Source: an uncultured Clostridia bacterium (GTDB lineage Bacteria; Bacillota; Clostridia; Christensenellales; UBA1242). From it: DNA of 43,471 nucleotides. Shown here piece by piece: positions 36,571-43,333 of this stretch (position 1 is its first letter; every line of letters starts with the position of its first letter). A program made the translations under genes and the position numbers. The notes below the pieces were generated by a model. That model did no database searches. It was given only the letters and a program-made list of their open reading frames with translations, and had not been told where the DNA came from. The stretch is taken from contig CANRGF010000003.1 of assembly GCA_947630075.1 (NCBI GenBank), forward strand, positions 1-43,471, read 5' to 3'.

Positions 36571-37830
36571 ATGAAAAAGTTTTGGGTGTGGGCAATATTT
36601 ATTTTAATATTTTCGTTCCCAATGGCTTTTTTCGGCTGTGCGAAGGATAAAAATTCAAACGCAAAAATTCAGCTGGATATGACCAACGCACGATGGAATT
36701 ATAATGGCGGCTTTGAAACGGAAAACGCTGGTGAAACAAATTTTGAAGTTAAGGTTTTGGGGTTGCCTAAGGAAATTGATGTAACCTATGACGGAGTAAC
36801 TTCCAATCGTTACCCTAATGAATATTGGACGATTTATCCAGAAAGTGGCAGAAGTGAATATTACACCGTTACTGCGCATTTGCAATACGATGAGGAAAAA
36901 TATGAGCTTGTGAACGACAATTTGCCCCGCACATTAAATTGGAAAATATACGACACTTTATATCTTGAAAAAGAAGCGGACAAAATTTCAAATTGTTATA
37001 GTGAATGGTATGGGAAATTTTCAAGAGAATCAATAGACTATTTGCATTTTGTGAACTATATTCCAGAGGGAGTGGACGCCACAAGTTATATGTGGGATAT
37101 GCAAGATGGATATGGTGAAAATCATGTTTATTTTGGGTTGGACGCAAACTTATTTAAAAGTTTTAAACTACCAAAAGATAGCTCATATATGTTCGCATAT
37201 CTCTATAATCTAAAAGGCATCACAGGTTTGGAATATGTGGATTTCTCTTGTGCTGAAGATCTGTCTTATATGTTTTTTAACTGTGGTGTTGAGAGTGGCG
37301 AGAAATTAGAAATCGTTTTCCCAGACAACTTGGATTTGAGCTCCGCCACAAATATGAGCCAAATGTTTTCAAATGTGGGAGGCGCGGGTGAATTAGAGCT
37401 TGAATTGGGCAACTCGTTTAACTGCTCAAATGTGAGCAACATGGCAAATATGTTTTATAACTGCGGCAAAAGCTCTAGTAAATTTCATTTAAGGCTAGGA
37501 GAAAAGTTTGACACTTCTAATGTGAAGGATATGAGCCAGATGTTTTATAATTGCGGAGCCGCTTGCCCAGACTTTTATTTAGATATGGGCTTAGGCTTTA
37601 AGGTTGACAATGTGCAAAGCATGATTCAAATGTTTTTGAATTGTGGGAAAAGCTCTAGCAATGTGAATGATTGGAAAATTGACCTTTTAGGAAAGCTTTC
37701 CGCTGAGTGTGATTTGAGTTGGGTTTTCTATAAATTCGATAAAGATTTGCGTGTTTATGTGGACGATGCTCAAACCTACGAGCTCTTATCCGCAAAAGGA
37801 TACACTCATCCACAGATAGTGATGAAATAA
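36571..37830 (+). CDS. surface lipoprotein with BspA/DUF285-like repeats
   Basis: Signal peptide with lipobox AFFG-C; about five ~30-aa repeats of (F)D.S.V..M..MF.NCG. Confidence 0.8.
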   Translation: MKKFWVWAIFILIFSFPMAFFGCAKDKNSNAKIQLDMTNARWNYNGGFETENAGETNFEVKVLGLPKEIDVTYDGVTSNRYPNEYWTIYPESGRSEYYTVTAHLQYDEEKYELVNDNLPRTLNWKIYDTLYLEKEADKISNCYSEWYGKFSRESIDYLHFVNYIPEGVDATSYMWDMQDGYGENHVYFGLDANLFKSFKLPKDSSYMFAYLYNLKGITGLEYVDFSCAEDLSYMFFNCGVESGEKLEIVFPDNLDLSSATNMSQMFSNVGGAGELELELGNSFNCSNVSNMANMFYNCGKSSSKFHLRLGEKFDTSNVKDMSQMFYNCGAACPDFYLDMGLGFKVDNVQSMIQMFLNCGKSSSNVNDWKIDLLGKLSAECDLSWVFYKFDKDLRVYVDDAQTYELLSAKGYTHPQIVMK

Positions 37831-37857
37831 AGCAGCCGGTTGGCTGCTTTTTTTTTG
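37830..37857. terminator. intrinsic terminator between convergent genes
   Basis: AAGCAGCC ggtt GGCTGCTT followed by a T-run. Confidence 0.8.
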
Positions 37858-37877: not shown

Positions 37878-39950
37878 CTAAACCGAATGAGTGTCAGTTT
37901 TTAGCTCTTCTTCTTGCGAGGGGGTGGCGGAACATTCTTGCTCTTGTTCCTTGCTCTCTTGTTGGATGAAAGAGGTCAATTTTTTGCTATAGCACACATA
38001 TAACCCGTGTAATGCGCGCGTGCATGCCACATAAAGATTTTGCCTATCAAGAGGGGTGTGATAGTTTGATTCGTCCGCATTTGGAATGATAACTCTATCA
38101 TACTCTAAACCTTTGCTTAAATATGTGGTGGTGATGATGTTGTTTGAAGTGAGAAGAGCGTCATCATTTTCATTTTTGATAAATGTGAATGAAGGCAAGA
38201 GTTTTGCCAATTTAAACGCTTCATCAAAACTTTTCACAACCACAGCTATCTTCTCGCCCTTGTGCTCTTCTGCAACAGCATTTGCCAATGACACAAAATC
38301 TTCATCTGTTTTGCACTTTGAAATTGATGGTTTACTCCCTTTTCGCACAAAGCGAGTGTTTGCTGTTTCCCCCACAATTTTTTGAGCAAATTCAATAATG
38401 TCGTTTGTTGAGCGATAGCTAACTGTTAAATTGTCCACTTGAACATTAGGATAAAGCCTTTGCAAAATTTCTAGGTTGGATTGCGAAGATAAGATGTTTT
38501 GATTATAATCCCCAGTGAGCGTCATCACCGCGCTTGGATATATCTTTTTGATTAGCGCAATGCTAAATGGATCGTAGTCCTGCATTTCATCAATAAATAT
38601 GTGCTTAATGAAATGATTTGGTGCAACCCCCATGAGATTGGCGTTGATATAAGCATAAATTGGTGCGTCTTCATAACCCATAGGCTTTTCTGCAAAATGC
38701 AAATTATGCTGAGCATAAAGATTGGAGAGTATCTCTTTTGCTGAAATGCTATTTTCCATCAAGGCTAACATTTTTGCCTTGCAGCGTTCAATCGCCTTTC
38801 CAGACTGTTGCTTATACCTTGCAGATAAGGCGGCAGAAATTAGCGCTTCAATGTTTTGCTTGATGTTTGGCATGGTGGGTCTATTCAAAAGATAAAGTAA
38901 AGTTTTTGGCATATCCAAACCCACTTTTTTAAACGTTTCATACACTGGAGAAACAATGTCATAATTTTTCAAAAATTCATTCACTTCATCATAGAATTTT
39001 GTGGAAAATTTTGTGTTGATTTCTGCCATGCGAACTTCGTCATAAAACTTGCTATCCACCATGGACAATTTTGTGCCACAAGTTTTAGGGGCGAGACCTG
39101 CATCTTTCAATACCTGCATTATGGTGCAAGAGCGCACATTTTCTTCGCCTAACTCTGGCAGTAAGTCGCTTATATAGGTGCTAAATAATTTGCTAGGAGA
39201 AATCACTAAAACATTTTTGCTTGTGATGTTTCCTTTGTTTGCATATAAAATGTATGAAATTCTATGCATGGCAACGGACGTTTTGCCTGAACCTGCAATG
39301 CCGTTTATGATGACGGTTTGCATAGGAGGTTTTCTTATGATTTCGTTTTGTTCCTCTTGAATGCTCTCCACTATGTTGGTCATGTGCGAAGATGTGTTTT
39401 GGCTCAAAATCTCTTGCAAGATGTTATCGTCAATCTTCGTGTTTGTGTCGATATAAGAAACGATTTTGTTTGGTTGCAGTCTAAATTGCCTTTTCAAAAG
39501 CAATTCAACGGGAATTTTGCCCACAGGTGCGGTATAATATGTGTTGCCAAGCGAGGAGAAATATAATAGCGATGCGATTGGAGAACGCCAATCTAATAGA
39601 TAGGTGGAATCGTCTTTAAAAAGATTCTTTAAGCCGATATAAAAAGTTTCAGGCTCTGAGCCCCTTTCTTTAATTTGAATTTTGGCAAAGAAAGGTTTTG
39701 GCATGATTCGCTGAAACATGTTTTTATTTTGTTGATATAAGTAATTTGAACTATCGCGATTGTAGATTTCTCCCTTCACTTCCACAAATTCAACAAGGTC
39801 TAATTTCTCAGTGGCGGCATAGTGCATGCTCTCACGAATGTCGGACTCGTTGCTGGCGATTTTCTTATCTAGTTCGTCAATTTCTTCTTTTATTTTGCCT
39901 TGAATAAATTCAAGGTGTTTTTGCTCTTCGTCAAGGATAGATTTTTCCAT
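37878..39950 (-). CDS. helD: HelD-like SF1 helicase / RNA polymerase recycling ATPase
   Basis: PFFAKI, YIG, DWRSPIASL, IV.SIQ.EQ..IIR, G.AGSGKT..AMHR, DE.QD, GD.NQ, SYRST, KGLEYD, YVACTRA. Confidence 0.8.
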   Translation of the reverse strand: MEKSILDEEQKHLEFIQGKIKEEIDELDKKIASNESDIRESMHYAATEKLDLVEFVEVKGEIYNRDSSNYLYQQNKNMFQRIMPKPFFAKIQIKERGSEPETFYIGLKNLFKDDSTYLLDWRSPIASLLYFSSLGNTYYTAPVGKIPVELLLKRQFRLQPNKIVSYIDTNTKIDDNILQEILSQNTSSHMTNIVESIQEEQNEIIRKPPMQTVIINGIAGSGKTSVAMHRISYILYANKGNITSKNVLVISPSKLFSTYISDLLPELGEENVRSCTIMQVLKDAGLAPKTCGTKLSMVDSKFYDEVRMAEINTKFSTKFYDEVNEFLKNYDIVSPVYETFKKVGLDMPKTLLYLLNRPTMPNIKQNIEALISAALSARYKQQSGKAIERCKAKMLALMENSISAKEILSNLYAQHNLHFAEKPMGYEDAPIYAYINANLMGVAPNHFIKHIFIDEMQDYDPFSIALIKKIYPSAVMTLTGDYNQNILSSQSNLEILQRLYPNVQVDNLTVSYRSTNDIIEFAQKIVGETANTRFVRKGSKPSISKCKTDEDFVSLANAVAEEHKGEKIAVVVKSFDEAFKLAKLLPSFTFIKNENDDALLTSNNIITTTYLSKGLEYDRVIIPNADESNYHTPLDRQNLYVACTRALHGLYVCYSKKLTSFIQQESKEQEQECSATPSQEEELKTDTHSV

Positions 39951-40047
39951 TTCTCCTCCAAAAGTTACTATAGTATAGCACATAAAAAGCAATAAAACAA
40001 TAGTAAAATTAAAAATTCAGTTCATTTTTTATGGTTTTTTGTTGAAT

Positions 40048-41778
40048 TTAGCTGTGCCAACACGAAAAATTTCTAAGCGAAAATGAATATAATTTGTGAT
40101 TTTCGCTTAAAATTTGCATAATTTCATCTTTAATTTTTGCTTTTTCATCTGTTGGTGCAGAAGCTGAATAAAAATAATTTAATCCTTCATTTTGCGAGGC
40201 TATTTTGCAGTTTTTTGTGAAAGTGAAATCGTTGATTTCAAACACATCTACCAAATCTAAATTTGCTTTGATGCCATTAAGGGTTTGCGTTAGGTCGTCC
40301 TCCGTTTCTTCTGGGAAATTGAAAAGCAGGCTTACGCTCGTTTTTATGCCATATTTTTTGCTTAAGCGCAAGATGTTTAAGGCGTGGTCAACTGTTATTC
40401 CTTTGTTCATTTTGTTGAGTAAATTTTGGCTAAAACTTTCTAAGCCCAAAAACATCATTTTCAACCCGTGCTCGCTAAAATGTTTTATTGTTTCTTCACT
40501 ATCGAGCGCGGGGTCGAAGCGGAATGTGCCCTTCCAATTAATTTTCACGCCACGCTCATCAAGCCCTTGCAAAATGTTTTTCACTTCGCCAGGAATTAGG
40601 CAATCATCCACAAATTCGATGTTGTGCACTCCTTGTGAAGATAAATTGCAAATTTTTTCCACAATGTTTTTGCAACTAAATGAAAAATTATCCCTATTAT
40701 GTCTATCGCAAAACAGGCATTTTTTATAATAACACTCTCGCCTTATTGACACGGGCGCAATCTTAAACACGGCAACATATTTTTCAAAATCAATTTGAGG
40801 ATATTCCGTTGTGGGTGTGCCCATTCCGTTTAGTTGAGCGATTGGCACAACGCTTGAAAAGAACGAGGTGAAAAAACTTGGATTATAGTTTGCTTCGAAT
40901 AATGTTGAGTTGTCAACTAAAATTGGCTTAATGTGGAGCACTTCATCTAAAATTTTTGCAAAAATGGTTGCGCTCATCAGTTTGTTGAAATTGTTCACAA
41001 CTAAATATATGTTTGCCCTTTTGCCGTTATACTTTTTTATTATGGCTTCAATCTGCGAAAGTTTTGAAAGATAGAATGGATATAAAATTGAAGATTTATG
41101 ATTTGAAATCGTGCTTTCAATGGCAAGAGAATTTTTGGGGTCGCATAAAGTTAACTCGCCAAAAGAGAAACGGAAAACGCCGAATTTCTTTTGCTGAATG
41201 GCTCGGCAAATTTGTGTGTAGCGATAAAAACTATCCACATCTTTTTCACTTTTTGCGTGCTTATATAATTCAATTTTTTCAGGCGAATATATTTGGCGAT
41301 TGAAGTCCAAATTAAAATCAAAATAAAAAGTGTGCTTATTTTTTGCCGCTAGCGCCTGCCAAACTTGAATGGTTGCCTCGTTGAAATATTTGGGTTTATT
41401 GAAAGGAATATCTAAAACCAAGTTTATGCAATCTTCCTCTTTTTTTGTCTTGGCAGGCTTTGCCACAGCGATGATGTCGCTTAAAGCAAACCAAGTTTTT
41501 TCGCAAGCGGGCTGATTATCCCCCTGCAAGCAAACTTTATTATTTTTATTATCAATCTCCACCACTCTATGAATGACAAAGTTTTCCACCTTATTGCCTA
41601 TGGCAACGGCTATGTCCCCCACTCTTAGCGAAAATTCATTTGAGATTTCCACATCTTGCCCGCTGAAAAAAGTGGGCACCATGCTAGAACCAAAAATCTT
41701 CACATTTTTGATTTTGCCTTGCCTAATTTTATCTATAAAAAATTTTCTTGAAAGGGTTTTATTTATCATCTTTTGCAC
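40048..41778 (-). CDS. fusion protein: N-terminal S24/S26-type peptidase plus C-terminal radical SAM domain (B12-binding-family-like)
   Basis: N-terminal GSSMVPTF...GDI...VIHRV...QGDN; C-terminal RRECYYKKCLFC, FVDD, GLESFSQ.LL.KMNKG, FNFP.ET..D. Alternative start ATG 41769. Confidence 0.8.
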   Translation of the reverse strand: MQKMINKTLSRKFFIDKIRQGKIKNVKIFGSSMVPTFFSGQDVEISNEFSLRVGDIAVAIGNKVENFVIHRVVEIDNKNNKVCLQGDNQPACEKTWFALSDIIAVAKPAKTKKEEDCINLVLDIPFNKPKYFNEATIQVWQALAAKNKHTFYFDFNLDFNRQIYSPEKIELYKHAKSEKDVDSFYRYTQICRAIQQKKFGVFRFSFGELTLCDPKNSLAIESTISNHKSSILYPFYLSKLSQIEAIIKKYNGKRANIYLVVNNFNKLMSATIFAKILDEVLHIKPILVDNSTLFEANYNPSFFTSFFSSVVPIAQLNGMGTPTTEYPQIDFEKYVAVFKIAPVSIRRECYYKKCLFCDRHNRDNFSFSCKNIVEKICNLSSQGVHNIEFVDDCLIPGEVKNILQGLDERGVKINWKGTFRFDPALDSEETIKHFSEHGLKMMFLGLESFSQNLLNKMNKGITVDHALNILRLSKKYGIKTSVSLLFNFPEETEDDLTQTLNGIKANLDLVDVFEINDFTFTKNCKIASQNEGLNYFYSASAPTDEKAKIKDEIMQILSENHKLYSFSLRNFSCWHS

Positions 41779-42829
41779 TTTTTACACTATTATAAATAAA
41801 TTTTGCCTCTCTGCAATTTTGTTCAACAGGCAAAATAACCTTGCCATTCGTGCGGTGCTCCATGTAGGTGGACACAGCGCAGTTTGAACAAAACTTTTTA
41901 TATTTGCAGTTGTAACACTCGCCAGATTTATCCTTTTCTAAATTTAGATATTGTGAAAAACTATCCCAAATTTCTTTGATTGAAAAGTCTTTAATATTTT
42001 TTTCGCTAAACTCGGCAAAATTGCACAGCCTCACTCCGCCCAAGCAGTTTATGAAAATGCTAATCCTGCCTGCACCGCAAGAATATAAGCAATCGTTATC
42101 ATTATTCATGTTTTCTCTGGTTAAGAAACTTAGCCAATTTTTTAGTTTTAGTTTTTTTATTTTGTTCATTATTGACAAATAGTCTTTGTCAGTTAGGCGG
42201 TTGGTTTGCTGACCGTTTGAAAAATCTTTGCTTGCAAGCAGGTTTAAATCAAATCTAAAAGGCACATTAAAGCCGGTGCAATAGTCATTAATCTGCTCAA
42301 ACTGTTTCCAATTCTGCTCCATGATAACTGTTTTAAGCGAAAGGGTTAGCCCAGCATCAATGAGCAGATGAATGTTTTTATTCACCACAGAAAAGCCGTC
42401 ATTAACTAAGCAAACGGACTTATAAGTAACATCGTCCACCCCATAAATGCTGATTTCAATCCTCTCGGGCGGATTTGCCTTTAAAAAGTTGATATACTTA
42501 TCTAAAAAGTAGCCGTTCGAAAAGAGGGCGATTTTCAAGCCTTTATCAAAGCAGTGCTTATAAATTTCTTTAAAATTTGGGTGAACGGTTGGCTCTCCAC
42601 CCGTGATTGTGATGGTTTCCAACCCCATTTCGCACATCTCGTCTATCATTCGCTTTGCAATATCTAGCGGAATAAACTTTATGGCGAGATTTTGATTATA
42701 ACAATGAATGCACTTAAAATTGCACGCGTTGGATATTTCAAAGGTGGCGGAGCGCAGTTTGCGATGATTGCTCAGCCGTTTATAATATTTTTTGAATAGG
42801 AAATTTTTAAGTTTTTCTTCATTTAACAT
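41759..42829 (-). CDS. radical SAM/SPASM domain peptide maturase
   Basis: CNFKCIHC, TGGEP, SNG; SPASM CGAG...G.VRLC...CYNCKYKKFCSNC...C. Start uncertain (42829 or 42838). Confidence 0.92.
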   Translation of the reverse strand: MLNEEKLKNFLFKKYYKRLSNHRKLRSATFEISNACNFKCIHCYNQNLAIKFIPLDIAKRMIDEMCEMGLETITITGGEPTVHPNFKEIYKHCFDKGLKIALFSNGYFLDKYINFLKANPPERIEISIYGVDDVTYKSVCLVNDGFSVVNKNIHLLIDAGLTLSLKTVIMEQNWKQFEQINDYCTGFNVPFRFDLNLLASKDFSNGQQTNRLTDKDYLSIMNKIKKLKLKNWLSFLTRENMNNDNDCLYSCGAGRISIFINCLGGVRLCNFAEFSEKNIKDFSIKEIWDSFSQYLNLEKDKSGECYNCKYKKFCSNCAVSTYMEHRTNGKVILPVEQNCREAKFIYNSVKSAKDDK

Positions 42830-43097
42830 AGGCAACATCCGCCTCAATTAACTGATTGATAAAATTCTTTAAATCTGCCTTGGCACGAGATTTCGAAACG
42901 TCAAAAGATTTAACCATTTCTTCTTCAATTTCTTCACTCGTTTTGCCCTGCTTTATCTTTAAAAATATGAATTTTGCCACATCTTCAAGCACTATTGCGT
43001 GCTCATAATCTATTTCATGCTTTTCATTTTCCTTAGTTAAGATAAGGCAATTTTCATATTCATCGTCCACTATGTTTGGCTTAATAAATATTTTCAA
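42819..43097 (-). CDS. PqqD-family RiPP recognition element (stand-alone RRE)
   Basis: 92 aa with L...A.FI......G.T.EEI..E....FDV....A..DL..FI.QL; SD GGAGG before TTG. Confidence 0.88.
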   Translation of the reverse strand: MKIFIKPNIVDDEYENCLILTKENEKHEIDYEHAIVLEDVAKFIFLKIKQGKTSEEIEEEMVKSFDVSKSRAKADLKNFINQLIEADVAYVK

Positions 43098-43155: not shown

Positions 43156-43260
43156 CTAGCAATAGCAAGAGTCGTCATCACTTCCTGAAGAATTGCAGCC
43201 GCTAAAAACTGAAATCTTGCTTAGGTCAATTTTTAGCAAAACGGGAGTTGAATATTTCAT
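43156..43260 (-). CDS. putative RiPP precursor peptide, 34 aa: MKYSTPVLLKIDLSKISVFSGCNSSGSDDDSCYC
   Basis: Below the ORF-track cutoff; strong SD AAAGGAGG; YxxPxL leader motif; Cys/Ser/Asp-rich C-terminus; first gene upstream of RRE and rSAM. Confidence 0.88.
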   Translation of the reverse strand: MKYSTPVLLKIDLSKISVFSGCNSSGSDDDSCYC

Positions 43261-43304: not shown

Positions 43305-43333
43305 ATCATAACATATAAAAATAATTTTGTCAA
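43305..43333 (-). promoter_or_regulatory. sigma-A promoter of the RiPP operon
   Basis: TTGACA-17 bp-TATGAT with extended -10 TG. Confidence 0.75.

Follow-up and report, generated by a model that had tools for sequence, protein, structure and literature searches.

The fusion gene and its product

The DNA analyzed here (hereafter, the window) is a stretch of 43,471 nucleotides from an uncultured Clostridia bacterium (Christensenellales; UBA1242), corresponding to positions 1 to 43,471 of the forward strand of contig CANRGF010000003.1 in GenBank assembly GCA_947630075.1. Its minus strand encodes, in this order, a short precursor peptide, a discrete PqqD-type protein, a radical S-adenosylmethionine (radical SAM) enzyme with a SPASM region, a protein in which a peptidase domain is joined to a second radical SAM enzyme, and a HelD-like ATPase. 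A preliminary description of the sequence had singled out the fourth of these products, the fusion protein, as a soluble leader peptidase joined to a tailoring enzyme. Its gene and the parts of the protein are as follows.

40048..41778, minus strand: fusion protein gene, GTG start, open for 576 aa; the whole protein was modeled with AlphaFold2
41449..41778, minus strand: residues 1-110, N-terminal helix (7-19) and putative anchor-less SipW/Sec11-type peptidase (Ser32/His70/Asp87), assigned from sequence, profile and fold matches
40759..41439, minus strand: residues 114-340, Rossmann-like domain at the place of the cobalamin-binding domain of class B radical SAM enzymes, lacking Gly-Gly and Gly-Glu, assigned from structural alignments
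40051..40758, minus strand: residues 341-576, radical SAM barrel and C-terminal helices, assigned from Pfam Radical_SAM, NCBIfam class B matches and structure
40708..40734, minus strand: Cys349-x4-Cys354-x2-Cys357 [4Fe-4S] cluster motif within the invariant ECYYKxCxFCDRH, assigned from the family alignment

The start of the gene overlaps the 3′ end of the upstream radical SAM/SPASM gene. An alternative ATG at 41769, three codons in, would yield a product of 573 aa, which is the gene call of the collection (P0001). The AlphaFold2 model of the full-length protein had a mean predicted local distance difference test score (pLDDT) of 88.4 and a predicted template modeling score (pTM) of 0.85. All motifs that the preliminary description had picked out were recovered from the translation, i.e., GSSMVP (30-35), HRV (70-72) and GDN (86-88) in the N-terminal part and GLES (445-448), MNKG (457-460) and FPEET (487-491) in the C-terminal part, together with the cluster-binding sequence RRECYYKKCLFC, whose Cys349, Cys354 and Cys357 are spaced as Cx4Cx2C.

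The fusion is conserved across its protein family

A search of 5.8 billion clustered proteins delimited a family of 16 members at E ≤ 2e-98, made up of the window protein, 14 others of 559 to 590 aa (38 to 50% identity) and P0016, of 402 aa. All three parts of the protein lie in one open reading frame (ORF) in 15 of these 16 aligned rows. Consistently, Pfam detected Radical_SAM in 16/16 rows and Peptidase_S24 in 15/16 (E ≤ 0.01), while the B12-binding family PF02310 was found in none of the 16. When 1.84 billion representatives were searched exhaustively with HMMER, just 13 proteins came up at E ≤ 1e-30: five full-length family representatives, including that of the window itself; four shorter family proteins or fragments (P0016, P0024, P0025, and P0030); and four giant multidomain radical SAM proteins that aligned over the radical SAM core alone. 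The uninterrupted fusion ORF also occurs in four further genomes. Contigs from public runs of two studies, which are low-depth, short pieces offering thin support and whose uncovered bins carry no meaning, showed neither indels nor joints over 40900 to 42000, and one of them (41407-41875) spans the domain junction. An assembly error, which the preliminary description had considered, is thus not what the data point to: mainly because its homologues conserve it, and less because of the public-run contigs, we regard the fusion of peptidase and radical SAM enzyme as genuine at the level of sequence.

The N-terminal domain resembles SipW/Sec11-type peptidases

Nine residues of the peptidase boxes (G30, S31, S32, M33, P35, H70, G86, D87, and N88) are identical in all 15 rows that possess the domain. 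Residues 20 to 105 matched the NCBIfam model of archaeal-type signal peptidase I, TIGR02228, at E 1e-8, and a profile of the domain run against PDB sequences retrieved human SEC11A (E 1.2e-6), SEC11C (3.3e-6) and a Ser-to-Ala entry of SEC11A, 9rjb (5.3e-6). In the profile alignment, GSSM, HR and GDN of the fusion fall on GSM, HR and GDN of SEC11, with Ser32 on the Ala position of 9rjb. Folded alone, the domain reached a pLDDT of 81. The top six rows of a structural search over 48,161 chains were SipA, LexA, lambda cI, LexA, SEC11C, and Escherichia coli LepB, aligned over 88 to 93 residues at Z 7.2 to 6.4, a range where a common arrangement alone may be reflected; the next rows were Tudor/chromo barrels covering ∼56 residues. 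The preliminary description had made its reading depend on an S24/S26 fold of this domain, and the six best rows are indeed S24/S26 proteins. Its assignment to Ser-His peptidases of the SipW/endoplasmic reticulum type therefore agrees with the TIGR02228 match, the SEC11A profile match and the structural ranking.

No membrane anchor was detected by 19-residue hydropathy windows over the whole fusion protein, as had been noted before: the maximal Kyte-Doolittle mean was 1.26 for the entire protein and 0.57 for N-terminal windows (starts 1 to 40). Instead, residues 7 to 19 form a charged helix in the AlphaFold2 model. Collectively, these data identify the N-terminal domain as a putative SipW/Sec11-type (S26B) Ser-His-Asp peptidase that lost its membrane anchor and that, lacking one, would have to act in the cytoplasm. 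When residues 1 to 112 were used to look for short stand-alone relatives by word-indexed search, none was retrieved at E ≤ 0.001. A pattern scan of species-representative genomes recovered the four known fused loci and nine distant relatives (33 to 39% identity), namely, one archaeal signal peptidase and eight bacterial ORFs of 120 to 399 aa, most of them with a hydrophobic SipW-like N terminus and several located among small secreted proteins.

The radical SAM half has a class B-type architecture and lacks both cobalamin-tail motifs

Pfam Radical_SAM matched the fusion over residues 352 to 500 (E 4.1e-13), and none of the 16 family rows deviates at C349, C354 or C357. From residue ∼114 onward, the model matched AprD4 (Z 21.8), TsrM (20.0), OxsB (19.9), MgmA (19.0), RimO/MiaB (17 to 18) and CysS (17.1), and the alignments to AprD4, TsrM, OxsB, MgmA and CysS begin at model residues 112 to 118, as expected of a Rossmann-type domain that precedes a radical SAM barrel. 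The motifs previously taken as typical of cobalamin-family radical SAM enzymes thus sit in a class B-type architecture (AprD4, TsrM, and OxsB; Z 20 to 22). The Cx4Cx2C spacing in place of Cx3Cx2C, which the preliminary description had also remarked on, is present, yet it turns out to be usual for the clade rather than specific to this protein: among 167 fetched proteins, 134 had only Cx4Cx2C, 25 only Cx3Cx2C, two both and six neither, and the usual form of the cluster in the radical SAM clade of the fusion is (G/E)C(Y)(Y/W)xxCxFC. OxsB is likewise described with a CX4CX2C cluster motif (PMC9204698). The next-best HMMER matches (P0026 to P0029, P0033, and P0034) are giant proteins (1,500 to 2,330 aa) in which three to five radical SAM modules, all of the Cx3Cx2C form, stand in tandem.

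According to the description of these enzymes in PMC9204698, OxsB, TsrM and TokK hold cobalamin through a Gly-Gly on β4 and a Gly-Glu at the start of α5, and Mmp10 holds it in another domain. We aligned five rows of the fused family with nine stand-alone relatives over these two sites. At the first, GG occurs in 7/9 stand-alone relatives, whereas the five fused rows have Asp-Asn (four) or Asn-Asn (one), the surrounding residues reading V-D-N-S or N-N-S. At the second, G/A-E occurs in 7/9 stand-alone relatives, whereas the stretch is deleted in the fused family. The middle domain is therefore a Rossmann-like domain with the fold of a cobalamin domain and without both cobalamin-tail motifs, which bears out the degenerate B12-binding domain without a visible GG proposed earlier. 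The best NCBIfam class B match of the fusion scored 70.2 bits against a cut-off of 600 bits. Neither a cobalamin riboswitch nor a PF02310 match above cut-off was found in the own genome of the window, which is 88% complete. Because the Gly-Gly and Gly-Glu motifs are lost and neither PF02310 nor the riboswitch was found, use of cobalamin by the fusion appears unlikely.

Other cysteines of the protein vary in their conservation. Cys212 and Cys393 are invariant in the family. The window protein has Leu439 and Ser473 where the 15 other rows have Cys, so that the two cysteines either are not essential cluster ligands or mark a feature that the window lineage lost and others keep; with Leu and Ser at these positions of the window protein, a role as auxiliary cluster ligands was dropped.

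The operon encodes a candidate cysteine-rich precursor and a discrete recognition protein

Upstream of the fusion, the minus strand carries the following features.

43305..43333, minus strand: promoter-like site upstream of the precursor gene, TTGACA, 17-nt spacer, TG-TATGAT, the best of the scan
43156..43260, minus strand: candidate precursor peptide, 34 aa, MKYSTPVLLKIDLSKISVFSGCNSSGSDDDSCYC, an ORF with like peptides at the same position in loci L001 to L004
42819..43097, minus strand: discrete PqqD-type recognition protein (RiPP recognition element [RRE], where RiPP stands for ribosomally synthesized and posttranslationally modified peptide), 92 aa, assigned by Pfam PqqD
41759..42847, minus strand: radical SAM/SPASM maturase, 362 aa, with a CNFKCIHC motif and a Cys-rich C-terminal SPASM region, assigned by Pfam

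The promoter-like site agrees with the consensus at 11/12 positions and has the extended TG, but it is a consensus match only, from a scan that was not enriched over shuffles (19 found versus 17.6 expected). The RRE passed the Pfam PqqD cut-off (E 3.7e-9; 37.2 versus 23.4 bits), and its best NCBIfam match, the lasso-peptide PqqD chaperone (E 2.3e-5), was under cut-off. The maturase matched Pfam Radical_SAM at E 1.4e-20 and SPASM at 21.3 bits versus a 21.5-bit cut-off; its NCBIfam matches to MftC, AlbA (E 5e-20), StsB (1.7e-18), and PapB (2.5e-10) were all under their cut-offs.

The precursor combines a YxxPxL leader with a core of the form GC-N-S…DD-x-SCY. In the four distinct precursors aligned, K2, Y3, P6, F19, G21, C22, D28, D29, S31, C32, and Y33 are invariant, and the leader motif reads Y3-x-x-P6-x-[L/V] in all of them. 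Ser-Cys-Tyr stands at or beside the C terminus in 3/4, and seven more residues follow Cys-Tyr in the L004 precursor. NCBIfam gave no family match for the four peptides.

The gene order precursor, PqqD, radical SAM/SPASM, fusion and HelD-like gene is kept in L001 to L004, whose fusions share 95, 48, 47 and 42% identity, respectively, with that of the window, while the flanking genes differ; the conserved block contains only these five genes. At a fifth locus (L005), which ends at a contig edge, a different gene follows the fusion. Without the HelD-like gene, the cassette measures ∼3.3 kb. These surroundings suit the notion of a leader peptidase joined to a tailoring enzyme, since the fusion sits in an operon with a precursor, a PqqD protein and a radical SAM/SPASM enzyme. 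Prediction of a complex between fusion and precursor scored 0.03 against a mark of 0.32, which is evidence neither way. Assignment of the locus to a known defense system was discarded, as PADLOC returned just generic similarity to radical SAM (pVip) and UvrD-helicase (GajB) components.

A HelD-like ATPase gene accompanies the cassette

Two features lie directly downstream of the fusion gene.

37878..39992, minus strand: HelD-like superfamily 1 (SF1) ATPase, 704 aa, assigned by NCBIfam HelD_BACSU
37829..37850, listed on the plus strand: hairpin of 9 pairs plus a T run, between the convergent ends of the HelD-like and DUF285 genes

The HelD_BACSU model scored 390.9 bits versus its 419-bit cut-off. 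A HelD-like gene follows the fusion in 4/5 further loci (L001 to L004) and overlaps the end of the fusion gene in L004. On the minus strand, the scan revealed no terminator-like site in the interval separating the HelD-like gene from that of the fusion; the hairpin at 37829..37850 is a possible end of the operon, which the minus-strand transcript may use.

The HelD-like copy of the window shares 62, 58 and 38% identity with its cassette-linked counterparts in the genomes G401 to G403 (L011, L012, and L013), compared with only 29 to 35% for the full-length best-match HelD homologues from genomes of the same order. A HelD homologue is carried by 16/20 genomes of the same family and 90/401 genomes of the order; the window query found no match in the same-genus genome G362 or the same-family genome G066. 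We computed an unrooted tree of 11 rows, comprising the four cassette-linked copies (window and G401 to G403), two other copies of G403 and the five best matches of the order, in which the cassette-linked copies fell on one side of a split with support of 100/100. Adjacency, higher identity and this split together indicate that the HelD-like gene travels with the peptide cassette. G403, the genome of L004, has two extra HelD-like copies (L014 and L015) with one stop each (TAA and TGA, respectively), and its cassette copy is intact.

HelR offers a parallel for self-protection of RNA polymerase by HelD-type proteins, in that case against rifamycins. That the HelD-like protein protects the RNA polymerase of the producer is a speculation built on this knowledge of HelR and HelD; if the link is functional, it would be a pointer to the target of the product. 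In the most far-reaching version, which we consider quite improbable, the five-gene block including the HelD-like ATPase would be one unit, in which a doubly radical-modified peptide of ∼13 residues acts on RNA polymerase, the polymerase-recycling ATPase of the HelD type provides self-protection, and the fusion carries out a new kind of cobalamin-independent radical reaction and releases the peptide only after it.

Distribution and genomic setting

The cassette was present in one of 401 sampled genomes of the order, that of the window itself. Neither the same-genus genome G362 (98% complete) nor any of 20 genomes of the same family yielded a member of the fusion family, and a metagenome scan with the family alignment yielded one locus, identical to L004. 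The own genome of the window (G000) amounts to 0.98 Mb in 117 contigs and is 88% complete, compared with 0.8 to 1.2 Mb for relatives at 98 to 100%; this is a lineage of gut Clostridia with very small genomes, still carrying an accessory peptide operon with two radical SAM enzymes.

In G362, the corresponding region (L034, G362:C1:236000-252300) has mnmG followed by rsmG-like, recF-like, dnaA-like, and dnaN-like genes, and it is devoid of the DUF285 lipoprotein, the HelD-like gene and the cassette. As all of them are missing there, the stretch from ∼36.5 kb to the contig end would represent variable DNA by the replication-origin region. The DUF285-repeat lipoprotein-like protein (419 aa; window 36571-37830, plus strand; Pfam E 1e-25) is encoded convergently to the HelD-like gene and weakly matches a model of Mycoplasma PARCEL-repeat surface lipoproteins.

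A parallel cassette occurs in other Clostridia assemblies (L050, 3504-10007; also L051 and L052). In L050 it encodes a 67-aa Cys-rich peptide, two radical SAM enzymes (one with Pfam SPASM), an 88-aa protein of PqqD size without a Pfam match and a UvrA-like ATPase of 811 aa, while a peptidase domain is lacking. The cassette also includes a stand-alone Cx4Cx2C radical SAM enzyme, which has a B12-binding domain (PF02310 above cut-off) and is 28% identical to the radical SAM core of the fusion. In the far-reaching version outlined above, the UvrA-like ATPase, with which the cassette of L050 to L052 ends in place of a HelD-like protein, would hint at a more general pairing of such peptides with rescue proteins for nucleic-acid machinery.

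A proposed maturation pathway and its alternatives

Taking the domain make-up and the missing cobalamin motifs together with the conservation of residues, fusion and operon, we infer that the fusion probably acts in the cytoplasm as a bifunctional maturation enzyme for a small RiPP operon, combining a late and probably cobalamin-independent radical step with removal of the leader. The operon most likely matures the 34-residue cysteine-rich peptide. In the proposed pathway, the separate PqqD protein would bind this precursor via its YxxPxL leader motif, and the radical SAM/SPASM enzyme would cross-link the core, most likely through thioethers formed from the two invariant cysteines. The C-terminal two-thirds of the fusion, i.e., the Rossmann-like domain and the Cx4Cx2C barrel, would then perform a further radical step on the core, probably independent of cobalamin and probably not a methylation. 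Finally, the N-terminal third (Ser32/His70/Asp87) would remove the leader after Phe19-x-Gly21, giving a product of ∼13 residues that starts at Cys22. With both activities in one protein, removal of the leader may be coupled to the final tailoring reaction.

The position of the cut is modeled on LppS, a SipW homologue reported in 2026 that removes the leader of linear polyphosphorylated peptides (LPP) in Bacillota (PMC13381572). As described there, cleavage requires the PqqD-type partner LppB and is abolished by each of the substitutions S29A, H68A and D93A; the N-terminal helix of LppS contacts the partner-leader sheet, F(-3) of the leader occupies a hydrophobic cleft and T(-1) lies at the active site. 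The YxxPxVL motif of LPP leaders is likened in part by the same source to [Y/W]xxPx[L/V/I/F/A], to which discrete lasso-peptide RREs bind. Since the helix, the triad, the PqqD protein, the leader motif and F19-x-G21 parallel this system, a cut is predicted between Gly21 and Cys22.

Several observations weigh against this interpretation. Gly(-1) and Phe(-3) fit LppA only partly, as LppA has Thr(-1), and the residue between them is Ile in L004. No exporter was found in the cassette, which is unusual for a secreted peptide. Both family models of the peptidase domain scored under their curated cut-offs (TIGR02228, 35.3 versus 51.85 bits; PF00717, 21.6 versus 23.3 bits), Foldseek with the isolated domain returned nothing at E ≤ 0.001, its matches lying at E ∼1e-2, and the Z scores of the structural search fall in the nondiscriminating range mentioned above. 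P0016 begins at the equivalent of residue 178, with the peptidase missing and the Rossmann-like domain shortened by its first third. As for the chemistry, loss of Gly-Gly and Gly-Glu is no proof of cobalamin loss, as Mmp10 illustrates, and failure to find B12 markers is weak evidence in an incomplete genome.

These last points bear on a first alternative, in which the radical SAM half is an ordinary cobalamin-dependent class B enzyme, for example, a C-methyltransferase of the TIGR03975/PhpK kind, that binds cobalamin despite its altered motifs and methylates the core before the leader is cut. Its best NCBIfam matches are indeed class B models (PhpK family, E 1.1e-19; MgmA, 7.6e-14; rSAM_ocin_1, 2.1e-12), its fold is like that of the cobalamin enzymes TsrM, OxsB, MgmA and CysS, and stand-alone CYYxxCxFC relatives retain Gly-Gly/Gly-Glu, the one in L050 passing the PF02310 cut-off. 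Nonetheless, these matches are confined to the radical SAM core (residues ∼320 to 525), each far under its cut-off, both cobalamin motifs are gone across the fused family, no row of which matches PF02310, and the own genome yielded no cobalamin riboswitch. The top structural match is AprD4, whose cobalamin-like domain is not known to carry cobalamin. We therefore deem cobalamin-dependent methylation unlikely.

The absence of an exporter from the conserved block, with flanking genes that differ among L001 to L004, would suit a product that stays in the cell instead of a secreted antimicrobial peptide, namely, a peptide-derived cofactor or effector in the style of pyrroloquinoline quinone (PQQ) or mycofactocin; in that case, a small cross-linked moiety close to the C-terminal Cys-Tyr would be cut out by the fusion. 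PQQ and mycofactocin cassettes likewise comprise a precursor, a PqqD protein, a radical SAM/SPASM enzyme and a peptidase; among the full-length NCBIfam matches of the SPASM enzyme, MftC, a mycofactocin maturase, ranks second (E 4.8e-26); the invariant Ser-Cys-Tyr stands at or next to the C terminus in 3/4 precursors; and the host genomes are of ∼1 Mb. We still hold this alternative to be improbable, given that the MftC match is far under cut-off (91.7 versus 265 bits), the block lacks redox partner enzymes, the L004 precursor extends seven residues beyond Cys-Tyr, and the rare and patchy occurrence of the cassette (1/401 genomes of the order; not detected in the same-genus genome) suits an accessory trait rather than a cofactor.

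It is very unlikely that the N-terminal domain is an inactive docking or chaperone module, like SipA of Streptococcus pyogenes, with an unlinked protease removing the leader. SipA (4n31) shares the best structural score (Z 7.2), and the domain is short, with a core of ∼90 residues and hidden Markov model scores under the family cut-offs. Docking would, however, not require that Ser32, His70, Asp87 and the surrounding boxes be identical in 15/15 rows at 38 to 50% overall identity; moreover, the conserved block encodes no other protease, and the counterparts of all three residues are reported as essential in LppS (PMC13381572). Finally, an artifactual fusion, by an assembly join or a frameshift over two genes, has a negligible probability and is already refuted at the sequence level by 14 other full-length homologues of 559 to 590 aa from different sources and contigs, by the same uninterrupted ORF in four further genomes and by the indel- and joint-free public-run contigs, even though the gene lies within 1.7 kb of the end of a metagenome-type contig and the relative P0016 is shorter (402 aa).

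Comparison with known systems

Literature searches on fusions of radical SAM enzymes with signal peptidase, S24 or SipW domains in a RiPP context retrieved no description of the fusion architecture, of cobalamin-motif loss in a fused radical SAM enzyme or of a two-radical SAM peptide family with a HelD companion. In the main text of a 2023 review on leader proteases of RiPPs, the terms signal peptidase, S24 and S26 do not occur. The parts of the fusion are of known kinds, and its peptidase type now has a published RiPP precedent.

The radical SAM half is best compared with class B enzymes. AprD4, a radical SAM diol dehydratase (PDB 6fd2), is the best structural match (Z 21.8; root mean square deviation, 3.3; 348 residues from 114), but it acts on an aminoglycoside substrate, shares 13% identity with the fusion and has no peptidase domain, and the NCBIfam AprD4 model gave E 0.031. 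A cobalamin-like domain devoid of cobalamin, as in AprD4, is what the loss of the motifs would suggest for the fusion. OxsB, from oxetanocin A biosynthesis (PDB 5ul2 to 5ul4), matched from its residue 113 at Z 19.9 and, at 17%, is more identical to the fusion than any other of the top rows. As described, OxsB shares with the fusion the CX4CX2C cluster motif and a four-part layout of an extra N-terminal domain, Rossmann domain, radical SAM barrel and C-terminal helices. It differs in binding cobalamin via the Gly-Gly and Gly-Glu that the fusion is missing, in acting on a nucleotide substrate and in an N-terminal domain that is no recognized peptidase; the sequence match is at E 0.022. The TIGR03975 (rSAM_ocin_1)/ApyD/PhpK-like clade has in common with the fusion the (G/E)C(Y)(Y/W)xxCxFC loop, DLN near the N terminus of the Rossmann domain, GLES, MNKG, and FPxET, and a stand-alone member is found in the PqqD/SPASM-type cassette of L050 to L052. 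The fusion is far under the cut-offs of this clade, with matches over the radical SAM core only, and it has lost the cobalamin motifs and gained a peptidase. The radical SAM half would thus be a compact test case for a class B-like enzyme after loss of its cobalamin motifs.

With ranthipeptide and sactipeptide cassettes (PapB, StsB, and AlbA), the operon shares a short Cys/Asp-rich core, an M-K-(K)-Y-x-x-P-x-L leader, a PqqD protein and a radical SAM/SPASM enzyme. PapA-type leaders and Cys-Asp thioethers would provide a further link to such cassettes. It departs from them in that its SPASM enzyme passes the cut-off of none of these models, in that its precursor matches no NCBIfam family and in having a second radical SAM enzyme, fused to a peptidase.

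The peptidase half is most similar to SipW, Sec11 and archaeal signal peptidase I (MEROPS S26B), which have the GSxMxP, HR and GDN boxes and the Ser-His-Asp residues and provide the best profile and PDB-sequence matches over residues 20 to 105; unlike these, it has no membrane anchor, scores under the family cut-off and is joined to another enzyme. For an anchor-less SipW-like leader peptidase, a precedent now exists in LppS, described in 2026; according to that paper, peptidases of this kind were previously undescribed in RiPP pathways (PMC13381572). Set beside the published description of LppS, the fusion has a peptidase of the same SipW/Sec11 type, with S32/H70/D87 for the similarly spaced S29/H68/D93, and an N-terminal helix (residues 7 to 19) ahead of the catalytic Ser, and it is likewise encoded together with a discrete PqqD protein and a precursor with a YxxPx[V/L] leader and Phe at position -3. 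The term radical SAM is not mentioned in the main text of the LPP paper (PMC13381572). The LPP partner genes (HprK-like kinase, NTP transferase, and MsbA-like exporter) were not found in the conserved block, which instead encodes two radical SAM enzymes and the HelD-like ATPase, and whereas LppS is a separate protein, the peptidase of the fusion is joined to a radical SAM enzyme. SipW-like peptidases having been linked to RiPP maturation first with LppS, the fusion would widen the reach of this protease class. A peptidase welded to a radical SAM enzyme, with chemistry unlike that of LPP clusters, would represent a natural coupling of tailoring and leader removal, in a cassette small enough for heterologous expression to be readily feasible.

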